From: Minisyncoccota bacterium
GTDB lineage: Bacteria; Patescibacteriota; Minisyncoccia; Phycocordibacterales; PALSA-1337
Length of the DNA: 64,000 nt
NCBI GenBank assembly: GCA_036170235.1
Contig: JAVHOW010000017.1
Span: 4,143-68,142, forward strand
Reading direction: 5' to 3'
Below the pieces are notes generated by a model. That model ran no database searches and had not been told where the DNA came from. It saw nothing but the letters and a program-made list of their open reading frames with translations. Positions 6,867 through 63,976 of the stretch are shown here, one piece after another. The position numbers and the translations under genes were made by a program. Within the stretch, counting starts at the first letter, position 1. Each line of letters starts with the position of its first letter.

Positions 6867-7062
6867 AAAAATCAAGAACCACACACACGTGTTTTTTAAT
6901 ACCTGCGGGGCTTGCTCGTTAAATTACAAGGTATTTTGGCGTGGAGGGTCCATCGACACCAAAATACCTTGCAATTTATACTCGCTTCAGACATGTCCTC
7001 AATGAGCACATTGACCTACTGGGTCGGTATTAAAAAACACGTGTGTGTGGTTCTTGATTTTT
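6867..7062. repeat. long hairpin element, copy C (37-bp perfect outer inverted repeat + structured core)
   Basis: 6867-6903 is the perfect reverse complement of 7026-7062. An inner stem pairs 6921-6939 with 6959-6977 (19 bp, one mismatch). The core carries the motif tgtctgaagcgagta on the minus strand. The element starts 1 nt after the pyk stop. Confidence 0.85.
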
Positions 7063-15151: not shown

Positions 15152-15328
15152 ATGTAAGAGCTGAACGACACCTATTTTTTTTGTTGTCTCGAAAACTCGC
15201 AACGTACACCTACCTCAAAATTTTTACACCTTTATTCAAAGTCCGTGGCGATTCCAATTTTGAGTCCGGTGTTACTCGCTCAAACAGTTCAAGACAACAA
15301 AAAAATAGGTGTCGTTTCGCTCTTACAT
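15152..15328. repeat. long hairpin element, copy B (37-38-bp near-perfect outer inverted repeat + conserved core)
   Basis: 15152-15189 pairs with 15292-15328 (two mismatches, T8 versus T7). The reverse complement of the core 15190-15291 aligns with the copy A core, sharing TGAACTGTyTGAGCGAGTAACAC...ACTCAAAATTGGAATC...AATTTTGAG...GTGTACGTTGmGAGTTTTC. Confidence 0.85.
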
Positions 15329-16315: not shown

Positions 16316-16972
16316 ATGAGCAACAAGGCATCATTAACAAACACGGAACTGGAAGTCACACAAAAAATGCAGACGCATTTTCCACGCGGCTTGGATACGA
16401 AAGTGCTCGGAGCCGTCAACAGTTGCCCAGTGGAAAATCTCACCGCGGCGCTTATGGAGATGGTGGATAAATTGGCGAGCGGTGCGAAAGCCAAAGTCAG
16501 CAAACTCCTCGAATTGGTGACGTCGGTGAAAGTTGCTGCCGTCAAGGAGTTCATCGCCGCCGACAAATTCAAAGCTGGTGAAACAGTTGATGGGGTGAAG
16601 TATTACTCCTCATTCGGCGGCAACTTCATCAAGCACTTCCTGTCCAAGGTTGAGAGAGATGTGGCAGCGACGGATCTTCGGGTCCACAAACTGCTGTGTA
16701 ATTCCAAAGACCTTGGCATCCGCACAGGGATTGGTGAGGACAATGAAGAGACCAGCCTCGCGCACCTTCAGCAGTGCTTGAAGCGTCAGGGTAACGGTGA
16801 AAAAGGTGATCTCCTGATCAATGGTTGGGCGAACATCTTCTACATCCGTGACATGGACGGCAACCTCTGGGCCGTGCGCGCGTACTGGTGCGGCGTTGGT
16901 TGGTGCCTCAGTGCCGACTCCGTCGAGGACCCGGATGGTTGGAGTGCTGGCGACCAGGTCTTCTCCCGCTGA
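16316..16972 (+). CDS. DGR variable protein (target 1), C-terminal VR
   Basis: 218 aa. The last 35 codons are VR1. Paralogous to 19021..19614 (shared ...NIFYIR...GNLWAV...W...GW.L.A.SVE.P..W.AG.QVFSR). No signal peptide or TM seen. Confidence 0.85.
   Translation: MSNKASLTNTELEVTQKMQTHFPRGLDTKVLGAVNSCPVENLTAALMEMVDKLASGAKAKVSKLLELVTSVKVAAVKEFIAADKFKAGETVDGVKYYSSFGGNFIKHFLSKVERDVAATDLRVHKLLCNSKDLGIRTGIGEDNEETSLAHLQQCLKRQGNGEKGDLLINGWANIFYIRDMDGNLWAVRAYWCGVGWCLSADSVEDPDGWSAGDQVFSR
16865..16970 (+). repeat. DGR variable repeat VR1
   Basis: 106 nt aligned to TR 17304-17409 without gaps. There are 15 differences, all at TR adenines. Confidence 0.9.
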
Positions 16973-17023
16973 TTCTTTGTGGTTTTGAACCTCTGCGTTT
17001 GTGTTCTGACACTTTGAATCTCA

Positions 17024-17066
17024 GACCCTCTGAAACTTGCGAAAGTTTTGGAGGGTTCTTTTTTTA
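17024..17066 (+). terminator. hairpin plus T-run after target 1
   Basis: gaccctc...gagggtt outer stem, aaactt/aagttt inner stem, then a T-run at 17057-17067. Confidence 0.6.
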
Positions 17067-17069
17067 TTT

Positions 17070-17078
17070 TGGTATACT
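17070..17078 (+). promoter_or_regulatory. extended -10 element (TGgTATACT), candidate promoter of the TR RNA
   Basis: The sequence tggtatact lies directly after the target 1 terminator, about 225 nt upstream of the TR. Confidence 0.4.
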
Positions 17079-17303
17079 ACAGAGTGAGGATGTCTAAGCT
17101 GTGGCGGTTACGACTTCCACGGAGCGCCTTGGGTATCAAGGTTCGAGAATCGTTTCAAATATTATTTCAAACGAGTGGGGATATTGATATTCAAAAAAAT
17201 AAAAGAATCGGTGCGATATGTCAGATGGTTTCGAGGACCACGCAAAATAGTGAACCTCCCGAGTATTCGAGGGGTAGTCGTACGGATGACATATCGCACG
17301 AAG

Positions 17304-17409
17304 CTCTGGGCCGTGAACGCGAACTGGTACGACGATGGTTGGAACCTCAATGCCAACTCCGTCGAGAACCCGAATGATTGGAATGCTGGCAACCAGGTCT
17401 TCTCCCGCT
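17304..17409 (+). repeat. DGR template repeat (TR)
   Basis: A noncoding copy of the VRs. It carries 24 adenines, mostly in AAC/AAT codons as read in the VR frame. It is invariant elsewhere relative to both VRs. Confidence 0.9.
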
Positions 17410-17421
17410 ATTCATTTTTTT

Positions 17422-17445
17422 CTTCTCTACTTTATTGTAGAGAAG
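17422..17445. terminator. bidirectional hairpin shared by the TR transcript and avd
   Basis: cttctctac (17422-17430) pairs with gtagagaag (17437-17445), followed by ttttcttt on the plus strand. The avd stop codon lies in the loop. Confidence 0.6.
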
Positions 17446-17779
17446 TTTTCTTTATCATATCCTTTCTCCACCCGCCGACATTTTTTCCAATAGTTTCAAG
17501 TTCTGTACCAAAAGATATATATTGCTCATTGGACATCAAACGGTTTTCCCAAAGCAATTGGATGAAGAATCTGATGTCGTCGACTTTTACAACAGCGATT
17601 TCTAGTAGTGATATTTTTTGTTTTGGTTCAGAAAATGAGGCTCTTCTCAATGCTGTGAGTAAATCAAGAAAGGCATTATCTATTCTGGAACCAAGCCCAA
17701 ATCGTTCAGTGCGCGGGATTTTCCTATGAATAATTATCCATGATGAATAAAGTAGTTTAACTTTTTCCACAACTGGCAA
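17432..17779 (-). CDS. avd: DGR accessory variability determinant (Avd; four-helix-bundle, 23S rRNA-IVS protein family)
   Basis: 115 aa. IPRTERFGLGSRIDNAFLDLLTALRRA resembles the Avd FPK.ERF.L..QIRRAA motif. It lies directly beside the DGR RT. Start is a non-ATG codon (TTG 17779 or GTG 17770). Confidence 0.8.
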   Translation of the reverse strand: MPVVEKVKLLYSSWIIIHRKIPRTERFGLGSRIDNAFLDLLTALRRASFSEPKQKISLLEIAVVKVDDIRFFIQLLWENRLMSNEQYISFGTELETIGKNVGGWRKDMIKKTSLQ

Positions 17780-17799
17780 ATATGCTGGTGAAATTGGTT

Positions 17800-17813
17800 G
17801 GGGGGGGGTGGGG
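17800..17813. repeat. homopolymeric G9-T-G4 tract in the avd/RT divergent control region
   Basis: g(17800-17808) t g(17810-13), immediately upstream of TAGACT (17814-17819). Confidence 0.9.
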
Positions 17814-17820
17814 TAGACTT

Positions 17821-18840
17821 ATGAGTATGTGCCAAATTAAGAATATTCATACCTACGAGGATATCATTTCTATGGAAAATTTGCTTGAAGCCTGGAAAGA
17901 GTTTGTGCGTGGAAAAAGAAAAAGAATTGATGTGCAAGACTTTCAATTACGATTATTTGAAAACATCCAGAAACTTCATTCTGATCTTAAAAACATGTCT
18001 TATAGGCATGGCTGTTATACTCCCTTCAAAATCAACGACCCGAAACCTCGTGACATTCACAAAGCATTAGTGAGAGATCGACTTCTCCATCACGCCGTAT
18101 ATAGAAAATTATATCCATTTTTTGATCGTACATTTGTAGCGGATTCCTATTCGTGTAGGAATGAAAAGGGGACACACAGAGCTTTCAATAGGTTTGGCGA
18201 TTTTGCGTACAGATCATCATTCGCGCACACCAAAACGGTCTACGTACTCAAGTGTGATGTAAAGAAATTTTTTGCTTCTATAGATCATCAGATTTTATTT
18301 GTAATTCTTGAACAATACATTCCTGACGTAAATATCATGTGGCTGGTACGAGAAATCGTTAATAGTTTCTGCTCAACAAAAAAAGGAGTTGGTTTGCCGC
18401 TTGGTAATCTGACGTCGCAATTATTTGTGAATATTTACATGAATGAGTTTGACCAATTCATTAAGCATAAACTCAAAGCAGAATGGTATATCAGATATGC
18501 CGATGATTTTGTCATTCTGAATCAAGACCGAAAATGGTTGGGGTTTGTTCTTCAAGAAATTCAAAATTTCTTGAATGAAAAATTGCACTTAATTCTTCAT
18601 CCAAATAAAATAAGCATTGAAACATTTGCTGGAGGAGTTGATTTTCTTGGCTGGATTCATTTCCCAAATCATCGAGTATTGAGAACTGCTACTAAAAAAA
18701 GAATGTTTAGGAATATTGAGATGAAGAAAGGGCAGAATGATCTGGACAAATTGAATGCGACGATTTGGTCATATTTAGGAATGTTGGGTCACGGAGATGG
18801 GTATGGGTTGGAGTGTGTGATCTCAAGATCAATAGTCTAG
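17821..18840 (+). CDS. DGR reverse transcriptase
   Basis: LPLGNLTSQLFVNIYMNEFD (the DGR-specific LGxxxSQ motif), IRYADDFVIL (YxDD) and KCDVKKFFASIDH. The start is more likely ATG 17821 or 17827 than the track start 17782. Confidence 0.92.
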   Translation: MSMCQIKNIHTYEDIISMENLLEAWKEFVRGKRKRIDVQDFQLRLFENIQKLHSDLKNMSYRHGCYTPFKINDPKPRDIHKALVRDRLLHHAVYRKLYPFFDRTFVADSYSCRNEKGTHRAFNRFGDFAYRSSFAHTKTVYVLKCDVKKFFASIDHQILFVILEQYIPDVNIMWLVREIVNSFCSTKKGVGLPLGNLTSQLFVNIYMNEFDQFIKHKLKAEWYIRYADDFVILNQDRKWLGFVLQEIQNFLNEKLHLILHPNKISIETFAGGVDFLGWIHFPNHRVLRTATKKRMFRNIEMKKGQNDLDKLNATIWSYLGMLGHGDGYGLECVISRSIV

Positions 18841-18882
18841 CCATATTGAAGATTTGAATTGTTATCACTATAAAAAAGAGAG

Positions 18883-18911
18883 TTGACAGATATATACTTT
18901 ATGTGTATAGT
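18883..18911 (+). promoter_or_regulatory. sigma70-type promoter of DGR target 2
   Basis: TTGACA (18883-18888), 17 nt spacer, TATAGT (18906-18911). About 110 nt upstream of the ATG. Confidence 0.55.
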
Positions 18912-19020
18912 GTTTTCAGAGCTATGGTGATAGTTTCACCCTCTAGCAAACCGTCGCGTAGCGACCCCTCAACTTGCGGGTAGCAAGAAGTTTCCTGGCA
19001 ATGAGCTGGGGAAAGGTAGT

Positions 19021-19614
19021 ATGAGCAAAAACAAGTACAATGACATAAATAACGGTCAAAACTTCGCCATATACACCAAACTCGGTGGACCCGAGGGCGT
19101 GAAAAGGTTCTTGGCAGGTGAACTGATTATGCGGAAACCGTCGCCTAATCGCCGACTCAAGTCCGTGGATGCGGTCGAATGCCCGAGGATCGAACGTTTC
19201 GAAGCAAAGGACAACTTCGGCAAAGGTGTGGTCAACGGAGTGAAGTTTTATGATTTCAACGAGAATTTCAAAAAACTTTTCATTCCAAAAGTCGAGACTG
19301 ACGTTGCTGAGACGATTCTCCAATCCCACCAACTCCTTCGGAATTCGAATGATCTGGGCATTCTCAAGGAGATCGAGGATGGCAAGGAAATCACAAACCT
19401 AGCGCATCTTCATTACGCACTCACACTCCAAGGTGATGGTCGGGGTGGTGTACTACTGGTTAACGGATATGCAAACATCTTCTACATCCGCGGTACTGAT
19501 GGTAACCTCTGGGCCGTGTTCGCGGACTGGTGCGACGATGGTTGGAGCCTCAATGCCCACTCCGTCGAGTACCCGGATGTTTGGAATGCTGGCAGCCAGG
19601 TCTTCTCCCGCTGA
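19021..19614 (+). CDS. DGR variable protein (target 2), C-terminal VR
   Basis: 197 aa paralog of target 1, ending ...NLWAVFADWCDDGWSLNAHSVEYPDVWNAGSQVFSR. Confidence 0.85.
   Translation: MSKNKYNDINNGQNFAIYTKLGGPEGVKRFLAGELIMRKPSPNRRLKSVDAVECPRIERFEAKDNFGKGVVNGVKFYDFNENFKKLFIPKVETDVAETILQSHQLLRNSNDLGILKEIEDGKEITNLAHLHYALTLQGDGRGGVLLVNGYANIFYIRGTDGNLWAVFADWCDDGWSLNAHSVEYPDVWNAGSQVFSR
19507..19612 (+). repeat. DGR variable repeat VR2
   Basis: 106 nt aligned to the TR without gaps. There are 10 differences, all at TR adenines. Confidence 0.9.
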
Positions 19615-19705: not shown

Positions 19706-19751
19706 GTGGGAGAAATTAGTATAATTACAGTTTTTGTGTTATATTTCTGAT

Positions 19752-20159
19752 ATGAAAATTGATGCTTATACATCAGCCATTACAGCTTTTGCCGAGAAAT
19801 ACGAGCTTGATTTCGTGGTACTTTTTGGTTCACAGGCAACCGGAAAAACACATTCAAAAAGTGATGTAGACATTGCAGTGATCAAGCGTGGCGAGATTAA
19901 TGTTGCTCGTTTGGCGGTTGAATGTGAGAAAATATTTAAACGTGAAGATGTTGAAGTCATAAGTCTTTCTGGAGCGTCGCCAACACTTATGCGCGCGGTA
20001 TATAAAGATGGAATTCTTTTGTACGAAAAAGAACCGGGGACATATCTCAGATGGAGAGTGTATGCGGCAAAAATCTGGATGGATACCGAATGGTTACGCA
20101 GAATGCGTGATCGTAAACTTATGGATTGGTCCAAGGCATATAATATAGCTAATGCATAA
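19752..20159 (+). CDS. mntA: nucleotidyltransferase-domain antitoxin (MntA-like)
   Basis: The VVLFGSQATGKTHSKSDVDIAV motif (GSx10-SDxD) of minimal nucleotidyltransferases. I chose the ATG at 19752. Confidence 0.8.
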   Translation: MKIDAYTSAITAFAEKYELDFVVLFGSQATGKTHSKSDVDIAVIKRGEINVARLAVECEKIFKREDVEVISLSGASPTLMRAVYKDGILLYEKEPGTYLRWRVYAAKIWMDTEWLRRMRDRKLMDWSKAYNIANA

Positions 20160-20164
20160 TTCAA

Positions 20165-20584
20165 ATGAATTATCCAGAAATAAACAGAAAGCTCGAAATC
20201 TTGCGTGGATACATGGAAACTCTCAAACCATACAGCGTTATGGATTTTGCTGATATATTGAAAAATGAAGAGAGAATTTTAGCTATGGAACGATTGTTTC
20301 AATTAATTGTTGACGAAGCCGCTGACATCAATTCATATATTGCATATCAAGTTTTGAACAAAGTTCCTGAATCATACAAATCTTCCTTTGGTGTTTTAGT
20401 GGAGGGTAATATCCTCGATCAAACTCTCATAGATACTATATCCGAATCTGCCAAAGTTAGAAATCAAATTGTTCATGATTATGAAAAGTTACAGAAAAAA
20501 GACGCAGTATCAGCCATACAGAAATTCTTTCCTGTTTACGAACAATATTTAGATGCGTTAGTAAAAAAGTTTATTGCAAATTAG
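20165..20584 (+). CDS. hepT: HEPN-domain toxin (HepT / DUF86)
   Basis: VRNQIVHDY is the Rx4HxY HEPN motif. It lies 5 nt downstream of the MNT gene. Confidence 0.8.
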   Translation: MNYPEINRKLEILRGYMETLKPYSVMDFADILKNEERILAMERLFQLIVDEAADINSYIAYQVLNKVPESYKSSFGVLVEGNILDQTLIDTISESAKVRNQIVHDYEKLQKKDAVSAIQKFFPVYEQYLDALVKKFIAN

Positions 20585-21985: not shown

Positions 21986-22699
21986 ATGTCTATATTCTCA
22001 ATTGTTGCTACACCTATTGGAAACCTCGAAGACATCACGCTTCGAGCTTTGAAAACGCTTTCCGCCGCTGATATCATTCTCTGCGAAGATACGCGTGTGA
22101 CCAAAAAGTTACTCGATCGTCATGGAATTAAAAAATCAACCCTGTCTTATCATGCGCACAGCAAACTTTCGCGTGTTGATGAAATTATTTCGTATTTGAA
22201 AGAAGGAAAAAATTTGGCATTAGTTTCTGACGCAGGCACTCCTGGAATTTCTGATCCGGGATCTGAATTGATGAAAAAGATTCGTAAAGAATTAGAAAAT
22301 GAAATCAGAAGTGGCGAAGTAAAGATTGAAACTATTCCTGGTCCTTCAGCGCTTACTTCCGCGCTTTCTATAGCTGGTGTACCATGCGCTGATTTTGTTT
22401 TTCTTGGATTTTTACCACACAAAAAGGGCAGAGAAACTTTGTTCAAAGAAATTGCCAATTCGGAGCGCACAATGATTTTCTATGAATCACCGCATCGGAT
22501 TATGAAATCATTGGAAAGTTTGGAAGAACATTTGAATGACATATCAGATGCCAAGCCACCGCGGAAAGTCACAGTCTGTCGTGAATTGACGAAGATATTT
22601 GAAGAAGTTGTGCAGGGTACTGCCAAGGAAGTTAAGAATTATTTTGAGGAACATGCCGATAAAGTTAGAGGGGAGTTTGTGGTGATTGTTAGTAGTTAA
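21986..22699 (+). CDS. rsmI: 16S rRNA (cytidine1402-2'-O)-methyltransferase
   Basis: SIVATPIGNLEDITLRALKTLSAADIILCEDTR, LVSDAGTPGISDPG and FYESPHR motifs. Confidence 0.9.
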   Translation: MSIFSIVATPIGNLEDITLRALKTLSAADIILCEDTRVTKKLLDRHGIKKSTLSYHAHSKLSRVDEIISYLKEGKNLALVSDAGTPGISDPGSELMKKIRKELENEIRSGEVKIETIPGPSALTSALSIAGVPCADFVFLGFLPHKKGRETLFKEIANSERTMIFYESPHRIMKSLESLEEHLNDISDAKPPRKVTVCRELTKIFEEVVQGTAKEVKNYFEEHADKVRGEFVVIVSS

Positions 22700-22864
22700 G
22701 AGTTGGCAAGCGTGAGGATGTGTATTTGCACGTATTGAACTGTCTGAGCGAGTAACACGTAACTCAAAATTGGAATCACCACCGTAGCCACGTAAAATTT
22801 TGAGTGGAGTGTACGTTGAGAGTTTTCAAGACGCGCAAATACACATCCTCACGCTTGCCAACTC
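22700..22864. repeat. long hairpin element, copy A (30-bp perfect outer inverted repeat + conserved core)
   Basis: 22700-22729 is the perfect reverse complement of 22835-22864. The core 22735-22830 contains TGAACTGTCTGAGCGAGTAACAC, the stem ACTCAAAATT/AATTTTGAGT and GTGTACGTTGAGAGTTTTCA. The element starts 1 nt after the rsmI stop. Confidence 0.88.
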
Positions 22865-22907
22865 GTAATAAAAGAGCCGCGCAAATCAGTGAAGAGATGG
22901 CGGCTTG

Positions 22908-27021: not shown

Positions 27022-28239
27022 ATGAACAAATCTCGCCGTGTCCTAATATTTTCATTGGTGTATTACCCTCGCTTTATCGGCGGGGCAGAGGTTGCTGTTA
27101 AAGAAATTACTGACCGTATTTCAGAAAAGGAAATTGAATTTGATATGGTGACCTTGCGTCTAGATGCGCGTCTGCCAAAATTTGAACGCATTGGCAATGT
27201 GAATGTGTATAGAGTTGGTTGGGCAAATCCAAGGTCGGACCTTGGACAAGTTTCTCTGGCAGATTCATTACCGCGGTATTTGCATCTAAATAAATACGCG
27301 TATTTGGTAACAGGATTTTTTAAAGCTCTATCACTTCAGCGTGTTCGAAAATACGATGCGACTTGGTCACTCATGGCGACCTACAATTCATTCGCGGCAC
27401 TTTTTTTCAAGTTGACTCATCCGAAAATTCCGTTTATTTTCACTCTCCAAGATGGCGATCCGATCGCGTATCTCAAACATCGGGCTCTGCCATTGTACCC
27501 ATTATTCAAAATGATTTTTACGCGAGCGGATCATATCCAAGCTATTTCAACATATTTGGCAGACTGGGCGCGTGATATGGGTGCGAAGTGTCCAGTTACA
27601 GTTGTACCGAACGCGGTTGATGTAGATTTATTTTCTCAAGATTTATCAATCGGTGAAGCGTCAGAACTCAAGCGTACATTAGGTAAAAAAGAGGGCGATG
27701 TCTTCTTAATCACAACTTCAAGATTGGTGACCAAAAACGCGGTCGGGGATATTATTTCAGCTCTTACTTATTTACCGCCGAATATTAAGTTGATTATTCT
27801 CGGTCAAGGATATCAGGAGGAAGATCTTAAAGCTCAAAGTGTTCAACTTAAACTCATGGGTCAATCAAATGCTGAAGACCGAGTGAAATTTTTGGGTCAT
27901 ATTCCACACGAAGACATGCCACCATATTTGCACATTTCTGAAATTTTTATTCGCCCGTCACTTTCAGAAGGTTTGGGTAATTCATTCTTGGAAGCGATGG
28001 CGGCTGGTATTCCAGTTATTGCCACGCCAGTCGGTGGTATTCCAGATTTTCTTGTTGATGGAGAGACTGGTTTATTTTGTGAAGTAAATAATCCGCACAG
28101 TATTGCGCAAAAAGTTGAGAAATTAATCAAGGATAAGGAGTCGCGGGAGTATATCGTCAGAAATGCGAAGAAGATGGTTGAGGAAAAATATAGTTGGGGA
28201 AGGGTGGTTGGGGAGATGAGGGAGATATTTGTGAGGTGA
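27022..28239 (+). CDS. glycosyltransferase family 4 (GT-B)
   Basis: PSLSEGLGNSFLEAMAAGIPVIATPVGGIPDFLVDGETG (E-x7-E type motif). Confidence 0.85.
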   Translation: MNKSRRVLIFSLVYYPRFIGGAEVAVKEITDRISEKEIEFDMVTLRLDARLPKFERIGNVNVYRVGWANPRSDLGQVSLADSLPRYLHLNKYAYLVTGFFKALSLQRVRKYDATWSLMATYNSFAALFFKLTHPKIPFIFTLQDGDPIAYLKHRALPLYPLFKMIFTRADHIQAISTYLADWARDMGAKCPVTVVPNAVDVDLFSQDLSIGEASELKRTLGKKEGDVFLITTSRLVTKNAVGDIISALTYLPPNIKLIILGQGYQEEDLKAQSVQLKLMGQSNAEDRVKFLGHIPHEDMPPYLHISEIFIRPSLSEGLGNSFLEAMAAGIPVIATPVGGIPDFLVDGETGLFCEVNNPHSIAQKVEKLIKDKESREYIVRNAKKMVEEKYSWGRVVGEMREIFVR

Positions 28240-28372
28240 GGTACGACACATGGCACAAAACACGGGATTCGGATACACGGATATTTTTCTGGTGAAAAAT
28301 TCCTATGCTCGGGCTCATCGCCCTCCGCAGTGTATCCTCACCCGTGTTTTGTGTCATGTGTCGTACCTCACC
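28235..28372. repeat. long hairpin element, copy D (32-bp outer inverted repeat with one G-T; core only loosely related)
   Basis: 28235-28266 pairs with 28341-28372. Inner stems are ggatacac/gtgtatcc and atttttc/gaaaaat. The minus strand carries tgagcccgagcata, resembling the TGAGCGAGTA motif. The left arm overlaps the stop codon at 28237-28239. Confidence 0.7.
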
Positions 28373-60656: not shown

Positions 60657-60658
60657 TG

Positions 60659-60692
60659 TGGAGGTGCTACCTACTGAGGTAGCACCTCCACA
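60659..60692. repeat. conserved GAGGTGnnACC / GGTnnCACCTC hairpin, copy 2 (possible murB terminator)
   Basis: A 14-bp perfect stem (gtggaggtgctacc / ggtagcacctccac) with loop tactga. No T-run follows. Confidence 0.6.
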
Positions 60693-61171: not shown

Positions 61172-61225
61172 TTTTCATATCAGGGTTTTTTTATTAACTA
61201 AAATGTGTTAAAGTGCCCTCTACAT

Positions 61226-63976
61226 ATGGCATTTTTGACCAAACTATTCAACCGTTCGAACACCAAGAATGTGAAGGAATTCGAGCCTTTTGTGGCACAA
61301 ATTAACGCTTTTGAGGCGGCGATGAAGGCATTGTCGGATGTGGAATTGAGGGCTAAAACTGATGAATTTAAGGCAAAAATAAAGGAGTATGATGAACGTA
61401 ATAAAAAACCCGAAACTCGAAATCCCGATCGAGCACGATCGCCACTGGGTCAATCCGAGACAAATTCCAAATCAGAAATTCAAAATTCAAAAAAGGCGCA
61501 ACACCCAGTATTGGATGAAATTATGCCAGAAGCTTTTGCCGTTGTTCGTGAAGCATCACGTCGCACACTTGGTCAACGTCACTTTGATGTACAACTTCTT
61601 GGAGGCATGGTTTTGAATTCTGGAGCAATTGCCGAGATGCGCACTGGTGAAGGAAAAACTTTGGTTGCGACACTTCCCGCATATTTAAATGCGCTTACAG
61701 GTAAAGGTGTTCACATTGTGACCGTTAACGATTACCTCTCACGTCGTGACGCAGTCTGGATGGGTCAAATTTACGCATTCCTCGGATTGTCGGTTGCAGT
61801 AATAAACAATGAGGCGAGTTTTGTGTATGATTCGATGCATCGAAGTGACGCGGACGGTACCGCAACTGTTCCTCAGGACACGCCGTCAACCTCTGGTGAG
61901 GTTGCGGCTGGTTCTCCTTCGCCTTCGCTCAGTCCGAAGCGTCCTTCGGATTCAGTTGCGGTACCGTCCGCTAACAACGACCCGCTCGACAAAGAACGCG
62001 ACCAACTTGGTGCTTTTAAAGTTGTTCACGAATTCCTCCGACCAGTCACACGCAGGGAAGCCTATGCCGCTGACATTACTTATGGAACAAACAATGAATT
62101 TGGTTTTGATTATCTTCGTGACAACCTCGAATACAGCCCAGACAAATTACGTCAGCGTGAACCGAACTATGCCATCGTTGATGAAATAGATTCTATTCTC
62201 ATTGATGAGGCGCGCACGCCGCTGATCATTTCCGCACCGATGCGTGATGCCGAATCGACCTACAAACAGTTCGCCTCGATGGTTCGGGCATTTAAAAAAG
62301 ATGAAGATTATACAGTTGAAGAAAAGCATCGCTCGATTTCTTTGACCTCAGACGGTATTACCAAAGCTGAAAAAATTCTTGGTATCGACAATATTTATAC
62401 TGACAAAGGCATCAAGTCTGTGCACCATTTGGAAACTGCCATCAAGGCGCAAGCTTTGTATCACAATGACAAGGAGTATGTCGTTAAGGATGGTCAGATT
62501 GTCATTGTTGATGAATTCACAGGTCGCATGCAACCAGGTCGTCGTTGGTCAGATGGTTTGCATCAAGCTATTGAGGCAAAGGAGGGTGTTGGTATTCAGC
62601 AAGAATCTCGCACCTATGCCTCGATCACATTTCAAAACTTTTTCCGAATGTATCCAAAATTAGCAGGTATGACTGGTACTGCCGCTACGTCAGCGGAGGA
62701 ATTTTTCAAAGTTTATGGTTTGGAAGTCGCTGTTGTTCCAACAAATGTCCAACCGATTCGTCTTGATCGCAATGATCAAATTTTTCAGACCGAGCTCGGT
62801 AAATTCAAAGCTATCGCACGTAAAGTCAAAGAATTGCATGCCAAAGGTCAGCCAGTCCTTATCGGTACAGTTTCTATTGAAAAGAATGAACTTCTGTCAC
62901 AATTTTTGAAATCCGAAGGCGTTCCACATCAGATGTTGAATGCCAAAAACCACGAACGTGAAGGTGAGATCATCGCGCAGGCCGGTAAGAAAGGTGGAGT
63001 TACTATAGCCACGAACATGGCTGGTCGCGGCGTGGACATCAAGCTCGGTGGTAATCCGAATACTCCGGAATTATATGAACAAATAAAGTCAGCTGGTGGT
63101 CTGTTCGTGCTCGGAACTGAACGTCATGAAGCACGCCGTATCGACAATCAGCTTCGTGGTCGTTCTGGTCGTCAAGGAGATCCTGGCGAAACTCAATTTT
63201 TCGTATCTCTTGAAGATACATTGATGCGTGTCTTTGCGTCTGATATGTTGAAGTCGATGATGGGTAAACTTGGCGTGGCTGATGATGAACCGATAGAGCA
63301 CAAACTTATTTCAAAGTCATTGGAGAGCGCGCAGGAAAAGATTGAGGGATTCAACTTCGATTCACGCAAACATGTTTTGGAATTTGATGACATCATCAAT
63401 ACGCAGAGGAAGAATATTTACGGACGGCGCAGGAGGTTGCTGTTGGGGACGGTTGATGATGTGGAGGGTGAATTGATGAATATCGTCGGAGTTGGTTCTG
63501 CGGAGCCAGAACAAGCTTTGGTATCAATCATCGACAAAAAAATCGCGGAATTTGGTCGCGAGAATTTCCTCAATGCGGTACGCATTGTCCTATTACAAGC
63601 TATAGACATGTATTGGGTGGAACACCTCGAAGTCATGGATTACACACGTTCCAGCGTCAATTTGCGCGCATACGGTCAACGTGATCCGTTAGTTGAATAC
63701 AAAAAGGAAGGATTGCGTCTATTCAAAGAAATGCAGGTCGCCATGCGTGCGCAGGTAGTCAAAGTTTTGCCTCATGTAGTCCCGATGATGAATGGCACAG
63801 CGGTCGCTCCTGAACAAAAGAACCTAAAAGAAGTTCATGAAAATGCGCAAATTATCGGCGCAGGTGATGGTTCCAGTGGCAACTCTGATGGAATTAAAAA
63901 GGAGCCAGAAGTTGGCAGAAATGACCTCTGTCCTTGCGGTTCAGGCAAGAAGTACAAGAAGTGTCATGGGAAATAA
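61226..63976 (+). CDS. secA: preprotein translocase ATPase SecA, with two lineage-specific insertions
   Basis: MPEAFAVVREASRRTLGQRHFDVQLLGG, MRTGEGKTLVATLPAYLNALTGKGVHIVTVNDYL, DEIDSILIDEARTPLII, TNMAGRGVDI and the C-terminal CPCGSGKKYKKCHGK. Insertions lie at about aa 55-95 and aa 210-275. Confidence 0.95.
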   Translation: MAFLTKLFNRSNTKNVKEFEPFVAQINAFEAAMKALSDVELRAKTDEFKAKIKEYDERNKKPETRNPDRARSPLGQSETNSKSEIQNSKKAQHPVLDEIMPEAFAVVREASRRTLGQRHFDVQLLGGMVLNSGAIAEMRTGEGKTLVATLPAYLNALTGKGVHIVTVNDYLSRRDAVWMGQIYAFLGLSVAVINNEASFVYDSMHRSDADGTATVPQDTPSTSGEVAAGSPSPSLSPKRPSDSVAVPSANNDPLDKERDQLGAFKVVHEFLRPVTRREAYAADITYGTNNEFGFDYLRDNLEYSPDKLRQREPNYAIVDEIDSILIDEARTPLIISAPMRDAESTYKQFASMVRAFKKDEDYTVEEKHRSISLTSDGITKAEKILGIDNIYTDKGIKSVHHLETAIKAQALYHNDKEYVVKDGQIVIVDEFTGRMQPGRRWSDGLHQAIEAKEGVGIQQESRTYASITFQNFFRMYPKLAGMTGTAATSAEEFFKVYGLEVAVVPTNVQPIRLDRNDQIFQTELGKFKAIARKVKELHAKGQPVLIGTVSIEKNELLSQFLKSEGVPHQMLNAKNHEREGEIIAQAGKKGGVTIATNMAGRGVDIKLGGNPNTPELYEQIKSAGGLFVLGTERHEARRIDNQLRGRSGRQGDPGETQFFVSLEDTLMRVFASDMLKSMMGKLGVADDEPIEHKLISKSLESAQEKIEGFNFDSRKHVLEFDDIINTQRKNIYGRRRRLLLGTVDDVEGELMNIVGVGSAEPEQALVSIIDKKIAEFGRENFLNAVRIVLLQAIDMYWVEHLEVMDYTRSSVNLRAYGQRDPLVEYKKEGLRLFKEMQVAMRAQVVKVLPHVVPMMNGTAVAPEQKNLKEVHENAQIIGAGDGSSGNSDGIKKEPEVGRNDLCPCGSGKKYKKCHGK
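61850..61971. repeat. GC-rich palindromic element embedded in the secA coding sequence
   Basis: gcggacggtaccgcaactg (61850-61868) is the perfect reverse complement of 61953-61971. The interior has its own hairpin tccgaag/cttcgga. It is translated as a Pro/Ser/Thr-rich segment absent from canonical SecA. Confidence 0.75.

Follow-up and report, generated by a model that had tools for sequence, protein, structure and literature searches.

The 64,000-nucleotide stretch of Minisyncoccota contig JAVHOW010000017.1 analyzed here (hereafter the window) carries near its end a secA gene with a long palindrome inside its coding sequence (Table 1). The product of the gene matches SecA (NCBIfam SecA equivalog, 1043 bits against a cut-off of 814; Protein Data Bank SecA chains, up to E 6e-231), and its open reading frame (ORF) stays open throughout the palindrome, with no stop codon. 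An earlier reading of this DNA from its letters alone (the sequence-only reading) had described a perfect 19-bp inverted repeat with unique arms that encloses 84 nt and forms a GC-rich patch in an AT-rich gene, and our analysis bears out each of these points: the 19-nt arms are 100% complementary across a spacer of 84 nt (122 nt in total), the arm sequence has no second occurrence in the window even with up to 3 mismatches allowed, and the G+C content of the palindrome is 0.62-0.63 as against 0.42 for the window. In 100 shuffles of the whole window that kept local composition, the longest perfect arm was 17 bp and an arm of 19 bp never appeared (0/100), while inverted repeats with arms of at least 14 bp number 7 in the window against a mean of 0.07 per shuffle. 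The folding energy of the 122 nt is -44.8 kcal/mol for DNA (z -11.0) and -74.5 kcal/mol for RNA (z -10.0), values equalled by none of 200 shuffles in either case. We propose that the palindrome is likely a non-autonomous selfish hairpin repeat, similar in behavior to a Rickettsia palindromic element (RPE) and tolerated in permissive loops of its host proteins.

The interior of the palindrome recurs elsewhere. An asymmetric core of 69 nt, which is not a doublet of one unit, was found in 14 other catalogued copies over 13 other loci, with 53 alignment columns invariant and the consensus GGACACGCCGTC-[6 bp]-TGST-[6 bp]-GCGGCTGGTTCTC..TCGCCTTCGCTC..TCCGAAGCGTCC common to all copies; in the closest subfamily, the conserved interior extends to 84 nt. 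Within secA the core occupies two variable positions of the protein, slot 1 (the window, L081, L084, L085/L089, L097, and L098) and slot 2 (L081, L003, L083, L088, and L095). Outside secA it is present in a leuS (leucyl-tRNA synthetase) fragment (L087), inside tgt (tRNA-guanine transglycosylase; L091), in three syntenic comF orthologs by a type IV pilus cluster (P0121/L092, P0125/L096, and P0126), in a typA (TypA) fragment (P0123), and between two convergent genes, 40 nt past a tgt stop codon (L094). The identities of the host genes were verified. The copies occur in both orientations relative to their host genes, and the slot peptides DTPS...SPSL.PKRPS and SEGRFG.SEGE.EP...DGVSRG, which recur across unrelated SecA lineages, are the two strands of one DNA. 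The sequence-only reading had made its proposal depend on discrete boundaries, and these are given by a core of 69 nt (84 nt in the closest subfamily) that recurs in other genes in both orientations. The 82-aa protein P0124 proved to be a spurious ORF over an intergenic copy, and no core was detected in viral contigs with two patterns. The Tgt protein encoded in L094 (587-1942) has no element at the site used in L091; it contains two occurrences of the peptide ISRSDLPEI, each at a variable position of its own, a duplication that suggests, by its sequence, yet another short repeat family in coding loops.

Within SecA, the copies are confined to positions that vary in length. We aligned 120 relatives with 837-989 residues and 70-100% identity; slot 1 holds between 0 and about 60 residues in them, and further variable slots follow residues 64, 764, and 868 (n=3). 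The alignment with Thermotoga maritima SecA covers query residues 94-203 and 255-748 and leaves the inserted segment unaligned. According to the sequence-only reading, canonical SecA runs directly from the strand of nucleotide-binding domain 1 (NBD1) to REAYAADITYGTNNE at this point; this does not hold for the present lineage, in which all relatives have an intervening conserved module of 35-45 residues (SF.YD ... LDKERDQLGAFKVVHEFLRP), and additional residues are present there in T. maritima SecA, too. The conserved motifs to either side of the slot show that this lineage, like Thermotoga, possesses a small extra module, and the element occupies its variable tip. We also obtained an AlphaFold model of SecA from 65 sequences, in which residues 215-273 are coil with a predicted local distance difference test score (pLDDT) below 50, flanked by well-predicted NBD1 strands and helices. 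The modelled coil is consistent with a flexible loop, while a model of this moderate quality (mean pLDDT 66.9) is not proof of one. Across 34 secA genes, 12 of the 13 perfect inverted repeats with arms of at least 11 bp lie within slot 1 or slot 2. In the window, slot 2 holds only a small hairpin, whose left arm and the outer left arm of the hairpin around the L095 element (GGTTCAG...CTGAACC) are homologous, with the T/A difference between the two compensated in the right arm; this hairpin could have been left behind when the core was lost, or it could be one that preceded insertion.

Other sequences share these positions. In L003 (1638-1874) and L009 (3481-3774), slot 1 is filled by a different palindromic family that consists of an inverted pair of GTCATTCCCGCGAAGGCGGGAATCCAGGAT copies, both with a small hairpin of their own; the pair is translated as VIPAKAGIQ...LDSRLRGNDK, and the arms of this family are conserved, as in repetitive extragenic palindrome (REP) doublets forming hairpins (REPINs). 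The N-terminal variable slot of the window SecA (61395-61495, residues about 64-98) reads PETRNPDRARSPLGQSETNSKSEIQNSKK and was ruled out as a hairpin (z -1.3). KSEI.NPKSETNSK-like peptides that resemble it occupy slot 1 in other SecA lineages (P0013, P0015, P0017, P0028, and P0084), and the N-terminal slot of L081 contains a different, longer insert than that of the window.

Presence of the element is polymorphic among close relatives. The sequence-only reading had suggested searching related genomes for insertion-free secA alleles, and we found them: slot 1 lacks the element in P0003 (82% SecA identity) and in P0008-P0012 (about 79-80%), and P0003 combines an empty slot 1 with a reverse copy at slot 2. 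This slot 2 copy (L083:2353-2445) has a nested insertion of 24 nt (8 codons), CGAATCAGCAGATTCGAGCCTGGC, in its core, with its own 6-bp hairpin. The empty alleles bear on the simplest alternative, an ordinary lineage-specific SecA loop that is palindromic by chance and involves no separate element. A slot that is hypervariable in all relatives, with extra residues in T. maritima SecA too, is what such a loop would look like; nevertheless, relatives with 80-82% identity do without the element, a perfect repeat of 19 bp was reached in none of the 100 shuffles, and the 69-nt core stands at five other positions in four other genes and at one intergenic site, in both orientations. Contradicted already by the copies outside secA, this alternative is in our view extremely improbable.

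The most informative relative is L081, with a secA 90% identical to that of the window, which shares the slot 1 copy of the window and has another in slot 2, where the window has none. The 84-nt interiors of the two L081 copies are 1 base apart, whereas their perfect 19-bp arms are unrelated. The secA genes of the window and L081 differ at 10.2% of all sites and 25.9% of third codon positions, and yet they share an identical run of 134 nt (61850-61983) whose first base is also that of the left arm. A second identical run in the same gene, of 170 nt (window 62627-62796), suggests from its sequence a recent recombination tract between the lineages. Since such tracts exist in secA, the 134-nt identity may reflect recent exchange rather than constraint. 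The same comparison speaks to an assembly or chimera artefact of this metagenome-assembled genome: assembly errors can make palindromes and the source genome is uncultured, but the identical 122-nt element stands at the same secA site in independently assembled ENA/NCBI and JGI contigs (L081, L082, and L090), and related copies occur in many other assemblies, so that an artefact is scarcely credible.

We then considered how the copies relate to the reading frames of their hosts. In frame with secA, the palindrome segment translates as DADGTATVPQDTPSTSGEVAAGSPSPSLSPKRPSDSVAVPSAN, and the predicted peptide of the insert is DTPSTSGEVAAGSPSPSLSPK. The sequence-only reading had called this an in-frame insertion, which is right insofar as secA reads through it without a stop; the 122 nt between the repeat ends are themselves not a multiple of 3, and the frame is preserved by units of 84 nt (28 codons, the interior), 69 nt (23 codons, the core), and 102 nt (34 codons), the last being the net gain counted against L083, which is the nearest allele with no element at slot 1. 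Every genic copy is in the reading frame of its host, with no stops in the frame used. Only two of the six frames were seen among roughly nine genic insertions, which were found by DNA pattern, so that the search introduced no frame bias: the forward frame gives a Ser/Pro/Ala/Gly-rich peptide (DTPS..SPSL.PKRP) and the reverse frame a Glu/Gly-rich one (GRFG.SEGE.EP...DGVS), and these peptides are recurrent. Arginine-rich frames are open in several variants and yet used in none of the insertions. This use of frames, together with the confinement to variable slots, is expected if the inserts are translated and only benign, loop-located ones survive; we infer that the insert is translated in SecA and neutral for its function. 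It also bears on the possibility that the palindrome is an intervening sequence that is removed or bypassed, either by RNA excision at the long stem or by ribosome skipping as in mitochondrial bypass elements. The long perfect stem does join the flanks, and a GC-rich element in an AT-rich gene would suit such a segment. However, every genic copy is in the host frame without stops, the restriction to two non-arginine-rich frames is a constraint unexpected in a segment that is removed, and Rfam scans at default and relaxed settings revealed no intron, intein, or ribozyme signature for the palindrome. We therefore consider removal or bypass quite improbable.

The core is conserved not only in sequence but also in structure. 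From 8 non-redundant copies we derived a consensus fold in which a long stem closes the element, a short inner stem carries a 2x2 internal loop, and a hairpin (P2) directly follows the tetranucleotide CGTC, which is invariant in 8/8 aligned copies. In P2, 5 of the 9 pairs have changed on both sides and 98.6% of cells are paired, with at least 7 compensated versions of the stem (AACCTC, GGCGCT, GACGCG, GGCGCC, GGCGCG, GACCTC, and TGCGCC). Over the consensus structure as a whole, 93.2% of cells are paired, compared with 40-47% when the partners are slid by 1-3 columns, and 26 pairs have changed on both sides in the true register, compared with 8-12 in the slid ones; the observed values of pairing and covariation were reached in 0/500 shuffles. 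The CTTCG/CGAAG stem of a second possible hairpin never varies, so that covariation is silent on it, neither for nor against. The 7-bp inner hairpin TCCGAAG/CTTCGGA to which the sequence-only reading had drawn attention is present in the window (61933-61950), but is not retained in the other copies. The closing stem differs in sequence in every copy, with perfect arms of 7-19 bp, or longer if mismatches are allowed. G-U pairs are not enriched among the mismatches in the stems, and pairing in the youngest copies is wholly Watson-Crick, which fits DNA-templated copying better than selection on RNA. Between comF orthologs that are 58% identical, 62 of the 69 core bases are kept, and 6 of the 7 changes fall in the internal stem, which is still fully paired.

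Such conservation raises the question of whether the core is a functional nucleic-acid element under selection, for instance a DNA site for recombination (by a recombinase), replication, repair, or uptake, or a structured RNA, with a closing stem that needs only to pair. The near-invariance of the core across deep divergence and the change of its stems by compensated substitutions only are as expected for such an element, as is the absence of any difference between the window and L081 over 134 nt from the first base of the arm, and the conservation is equal in either translated frame and hence not at the level of the peptide. On the other hand, a sequence-specific role in the transcript is at odds with the presence of both orientations relative to the host mRNA and with flips in place, close relatives lack the element at the same sites, the host genes are functionally unrelated, and the stem mismatches are not enriched in G-U wobble pairs. 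Moreover, no Rfam 15 family matches within the window at gathering thresholds, and the best relaxed hits have E >5 with E up to 10 allowed. We regard a function of the core as unlikely, and retain the selfish repeat as the preferred reading.

Both orientations at a single slot can be traced to inversion in place. The secA genes of L084 (forward core) and L097 (reverse core) are 87% identical in nucleotide sequence with collinear flanks, but their 96-nt arm-bounded segments are only 62% identical when compared directly and 94% identical (90/96, ungapped) when one is reverse-complemented. At slot 2, L083 and L095 likewise give a local score of 12.5 directly and 55.5 as reverse complement, with a match that reaches the inner arms. 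Given these in-place flips, both orientations at one slot need no independent insertions. The arms are also remodelled. The base of the right arm in L084 has exactly 18 nt (six codons) more than that of L097, and the reverse complement of this block matches the upstream flank of L084 itself (AGAGGTCTCG, 10/10); one arm difference is thus an inverted copy of the flank, and either the L084 arm grew by copying the opposite flank in inverted form, or L097 lost the 18-nt block. Template switching at replication forks is a documented route to perfect palindromes with concertedly evolving arms (PMC6649704), and by analogy we would give it somewhat less than an even chance of being the source of the arms here. 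We had also considered that arms are never transferred together with the core. This idea was dropped, as the copies inside tgt (L091) and 3' of tgt (L094) share, at their different positions, homologous arms that have diverged with compensated differences.

Overall, the element is discrete, dispersed, present in both orientations, polymorphic among close relatives, conserved in structure, always in frame, and inverted in place. The proposal of the sequence-only reading that a discrete palindromic element colonized secA in frame, in the manner of an RPE, is upheld by the empty alleles and the dispersed copies. We propose that the palindrome would be one copy of a small family of non-autonomous hairpin repeats in Paceibacteria-type genomes of the Candidate Phyla Radiation (CPR), each copy with a conserved asymmetric 69-nt core that holds a covarying CGTC-tagged hairpin and is closed by a long stem that differs from site to site. 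As selfish or neutral DNA, the family would give rise to new copies at new sites, and these would survive only at sites acceptable to the host, either intergenic or within flexible loops of housekeeping proteins without a shift of frame; resident copies in such loops would be translated as a Ser/Pro/Ala/Gly-rich (forward) or Glu/Gly-rich (reverse) peptide. The resident palindrome would be remodelled as DNA, with flips between its inverted arms and with arms rebuilt or extended from the neighboring flank, most likely by template switching during replication. Rebuilding from the flank would explain why the arms are unique to each copy and often perfect. The movement to new sites is itself something we infer.

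Several observations weigh against this proposal. The copy number looks low: the 64-kb window has one copy and the 23-kb L081 locus two, a 24-nt core pattern searched exactly occurs in only 6 stretches of the metagenome collection, and a profile search with the forward frame against 1.84 billion representative proteins gave 3 true hits. Among the 50 ORFs of the window there is no transposase-like protein, and the secA copy has no target-site duplication (no direct repeat of 2-12 nt in the flanks ...GAAGTGAC / element / TAACAACG...). The core in comF is conserved beyond simple selfish decay, which could be due to repeated gene conversion among copies, to recent spread, or to a function at the DNA level. 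Similarly, the 134 nt shared by the window and L081 despite 26% divergence at third positions elsewhere could stem from a function, from gene conversion between copies, or from recombination in the recent past. The two slots in SecA have been filled repeatedly, also by other hairpin families, which suggests targeting of existing hairpins or exchange of alleles rather than random insertion followed by selection. Finally, translation of the insert is predicted from the open frames of the DNA.

A more far-reaching version of the proposal, which we put forward tentatively and consider rather doubtful, is a class of CPR mobile elements defined by structure instead of conserved ends: a core of 69-84 nt in a self-renewing palindrome, with arms made from the flank, flips, and repeated re-occupation of the same slots, which bear hairpins. 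The shared 19/84/19 geometry of the two young copies, the net gain of 102 nt over the empty allele at each of their two sites, and the 18-nt inverted copy of a flank would point to arms built in blocks of about 18 nt. If such a class exists, it implies an insertion that targets or generates hairpins without terminal repeats, target duplication, or a known transposase, and it would be a general source of new disordered loops in the essential proteins of reduced genomes. Even for the repeat family as described here, length variation and low-complexity inserts in conserved CPR proteins may be partly repeat-derived rather than adaptive, which matters for annotation, phylogenetic alignments, and structure prediction (SecA has 837-989 residues among relatives with 70-100% identity). 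A core with site-specific perfect arms, in-place inversion, and inverted flank copies is also a natural system for the creation and maintenance of palindromes in bacterial chromosomes, and its polymorphism in presence, absence, and orientation at fixed slots offers convenient strain markers for metagenomes.

Table 1. Features of secA and of the palindromic element in the window (coordinates in window positions).
Feature	Position	Strand	Remarks
secA ORF, 923 codons from GTG	61205..63976	+	probable true start ATG 61226, giving the 916-aa protein P0001
SecA variable slot 1 (about residues 210-258), site of the element	61832..61978	+	between the SF.YD and D.LDKERD motifs
Left arm of closing stem, GCGGACGGTACCGCAACTG	61850..61868	+	peculiar to this copy
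Inner stem, left side, TTCCTCA	61869..61875	+	in closest subfamily too; part of 84-nt interior; from alignment and consensus fold
Asymmetric 69-nt core (GGAC...GTCC), 23 codons, read as DTPSTSGEVAAGSPSPSLSPKRP	61876..61944	+	from DNA recurrence and alignment
Internal hairpin P2, CAACCTC-TGGT-GAGGTTG	61887..61904	+	CGTC 61884-61887 directly before; from covariation
Possible small hairpin, CTTCG-CTCAGTC-CGAAG	61923..61939	+	invariant; only a loop dinucleotide differs among copies
Inner stem, right side, TTCGGATT	61945..61952	+	from alignment and consensus fold
Right arm of closing stem, CAGTTGCGGTACCGTCCGC	61953..61971	+	complement of left arm
SecA slot 2, small hairpin GGTTCTG-CGGAGC-CAGAAC	63494..63512	+	element-free in this genome; relatives carry the same family there

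In addition to the secA palindrome, the window contains long intergenic hairpins (6867-7062, 15152-15328, 22696-22868, 28235-28372, and 60657-60692) with arms of 16-55 bp, two of them perfect (37 and 16 bp). Each of them starts at or within a few bases of the upstream stop codon, after genes for pyruvate kinase, a glycosyltransferase, a TP_methylase-family protein, and MurB, and may be terminator-associated. Two of them, 22696-22868 and, on the reverse strand, 15152-15328, have a common interior (TTGAACTGT.TGAGCGAGTAACAC...ACTCAAAATTGGAATC...AAAATTTTGAG...GTGTACGTTG.GAGTTTTC) and different outer arms, the same design of core plus unique arms as in the secA element, without sequence similarity to it; their interior motif is present in none of the fetched loci. 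The sequence-only reading had linked the secA palindrome to these hairpins. The likeness in architecture stands for the two with a conserved interior, but no hairpin of the set is similar in sequence to the secA core, the c(t/c)gaagcg motif offered as a link is too short to carry weight, and a common origin has no support in sequence. The window also encodes a diversity-generating retroelement (16316-19614), with a reverse transcriptase (17782-18837; Pfam RVT_1, E 2e-20), a template repeat (17301-17409), and variable repeats at the 3' ends of two ORFs (16316-16972 and 19021-19614), in which template adenines account for 15 of 16 and 10 of 11 mismatches. A connection between this reverse transcriptase and the hairpins was rejected: the enzyme belongs to the retroelement, which has its own repeats, and shows no link to the hairpins. 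Adjoining the retroelement, a nucleotidyltransferase (Polbeta/MNT, E 7e-17) and a HepT-like RNase (E 2e-18) at 19734-20581 form a pair that by its domains matches a putative type VII toxin-antitoxin module.

In-frame palindromic colonization of essential genes is regarded as a peculiarity of Rickettsia, with scattered REP cases elsewhere. RPEs (Ogata et al. 2000) are presented in the summary of PMC1779305 as repeats of about 100-150 bp in intergenic and protein-coding regions, and in PMC10969869 as lying in frame in the ORFs of functional proteins with a recurrent peptide, with 44 insertions in R. conorii; the copies lose their repeat identity over time (PMC6649704). The element described here resembles them in its size (a 122-nt unit), in its copies in secA (two slots), leuS, tgt, comF, typA, and one intergenic site, and in being a palindrome that lies in frame in unrelated housekeeping genes, with recurrent peptides and a loop location compatible with protein function. 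In both systems, some old insertions are common to orthologs (PheT in Rickettsia, comF here). They differ in the host, which is a member of the Patescibacteria/CPR and not of the Rickettsiales, perhaps in copy number, which looks low here in a 64-kb window and a 23-kb locus, and in the in-place inversion and arm remodelling documented here. RPE families also conserve the whole element including its ends, whereas only the 69-84-nt interior is conserved here and the arms are unrelated. The RPE likeness drawn by the sequence-only reading would thus extend to behavior (in frame, in loops, with recurrent peptides) but, in a comparison by published features and not by sequence, not to membership, which fails on conserved ends for RPEs and also for miniature inverted-repeat transposable elements, or MITEs.

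Other known systems share single features with the element. The CGTC-tagged REPs, a class to which RPE-4 and RPE-6 belong (Di Nocera et al. 2013, PMC3733652), have a stem of 8-9 bp that starts with two A-T pairs, a 4-5 nt loop, and a short tail resembling CCA (PMC3733652). The likeness lies in the CGTC directly before a stem-loop, a 4-nt loop (TGGT/TGCT here), subfamily-specific stems, the location of some copies in genes, and the lack of a known dedicated transposase; in contrast, the stem here is 6-7 bp, A-T in the first two pairs (AA..TT) is limited to the window-type variant, GCGG and not CCA comes after the hairpin, there are no head-to-head dimers, and the hairpin is one part of a 69-nt core. 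REPINs and MITEs, like the present element, are small, non-coding, hairpin-forming, non-autonomous repeats of about 100 nt with a single long stem, but they have conserved arms or terminal inverted repeats where here the arms are the variable part. MITEs have conserved terminal inverted repeats of 15-30 bp and a target-site duplication, and neither is present here; a REPIN is an inverted REP doublet mobilized by a REP-associated tyrosine transposase (RAYT), whereas the core here is asymmetric, and no RAYT or IS200/IS605 gene is found among the 50 ORFs of the 64-kb window. The coding palindromes of Nematomorpha mitochondria (PMC6649704) are likewise long perfect inverted repeats in translated genes that have been gained in some species and lost in others; the perfection of their arms was ascribed to active maintenance, with template switching proposed (PMC6649704). 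In that system there is no conserved core and both arms encode conserved protein, whereas here a non-palindromic core lies between the arms and the unit sits in a dispensable loop. A full-text literature search that combined CPR names with palindromic and inverted-repeat terms found no description of such elements in CPR/Patescibacteria, and literature on in-frame palindromic inserts in general concerned only other systems. Palindromic repeats that colonize coding sequences are thus already known, and what is new here is best described as the phylum in which they occur and the architecture of a conserved core with site-specific arms.

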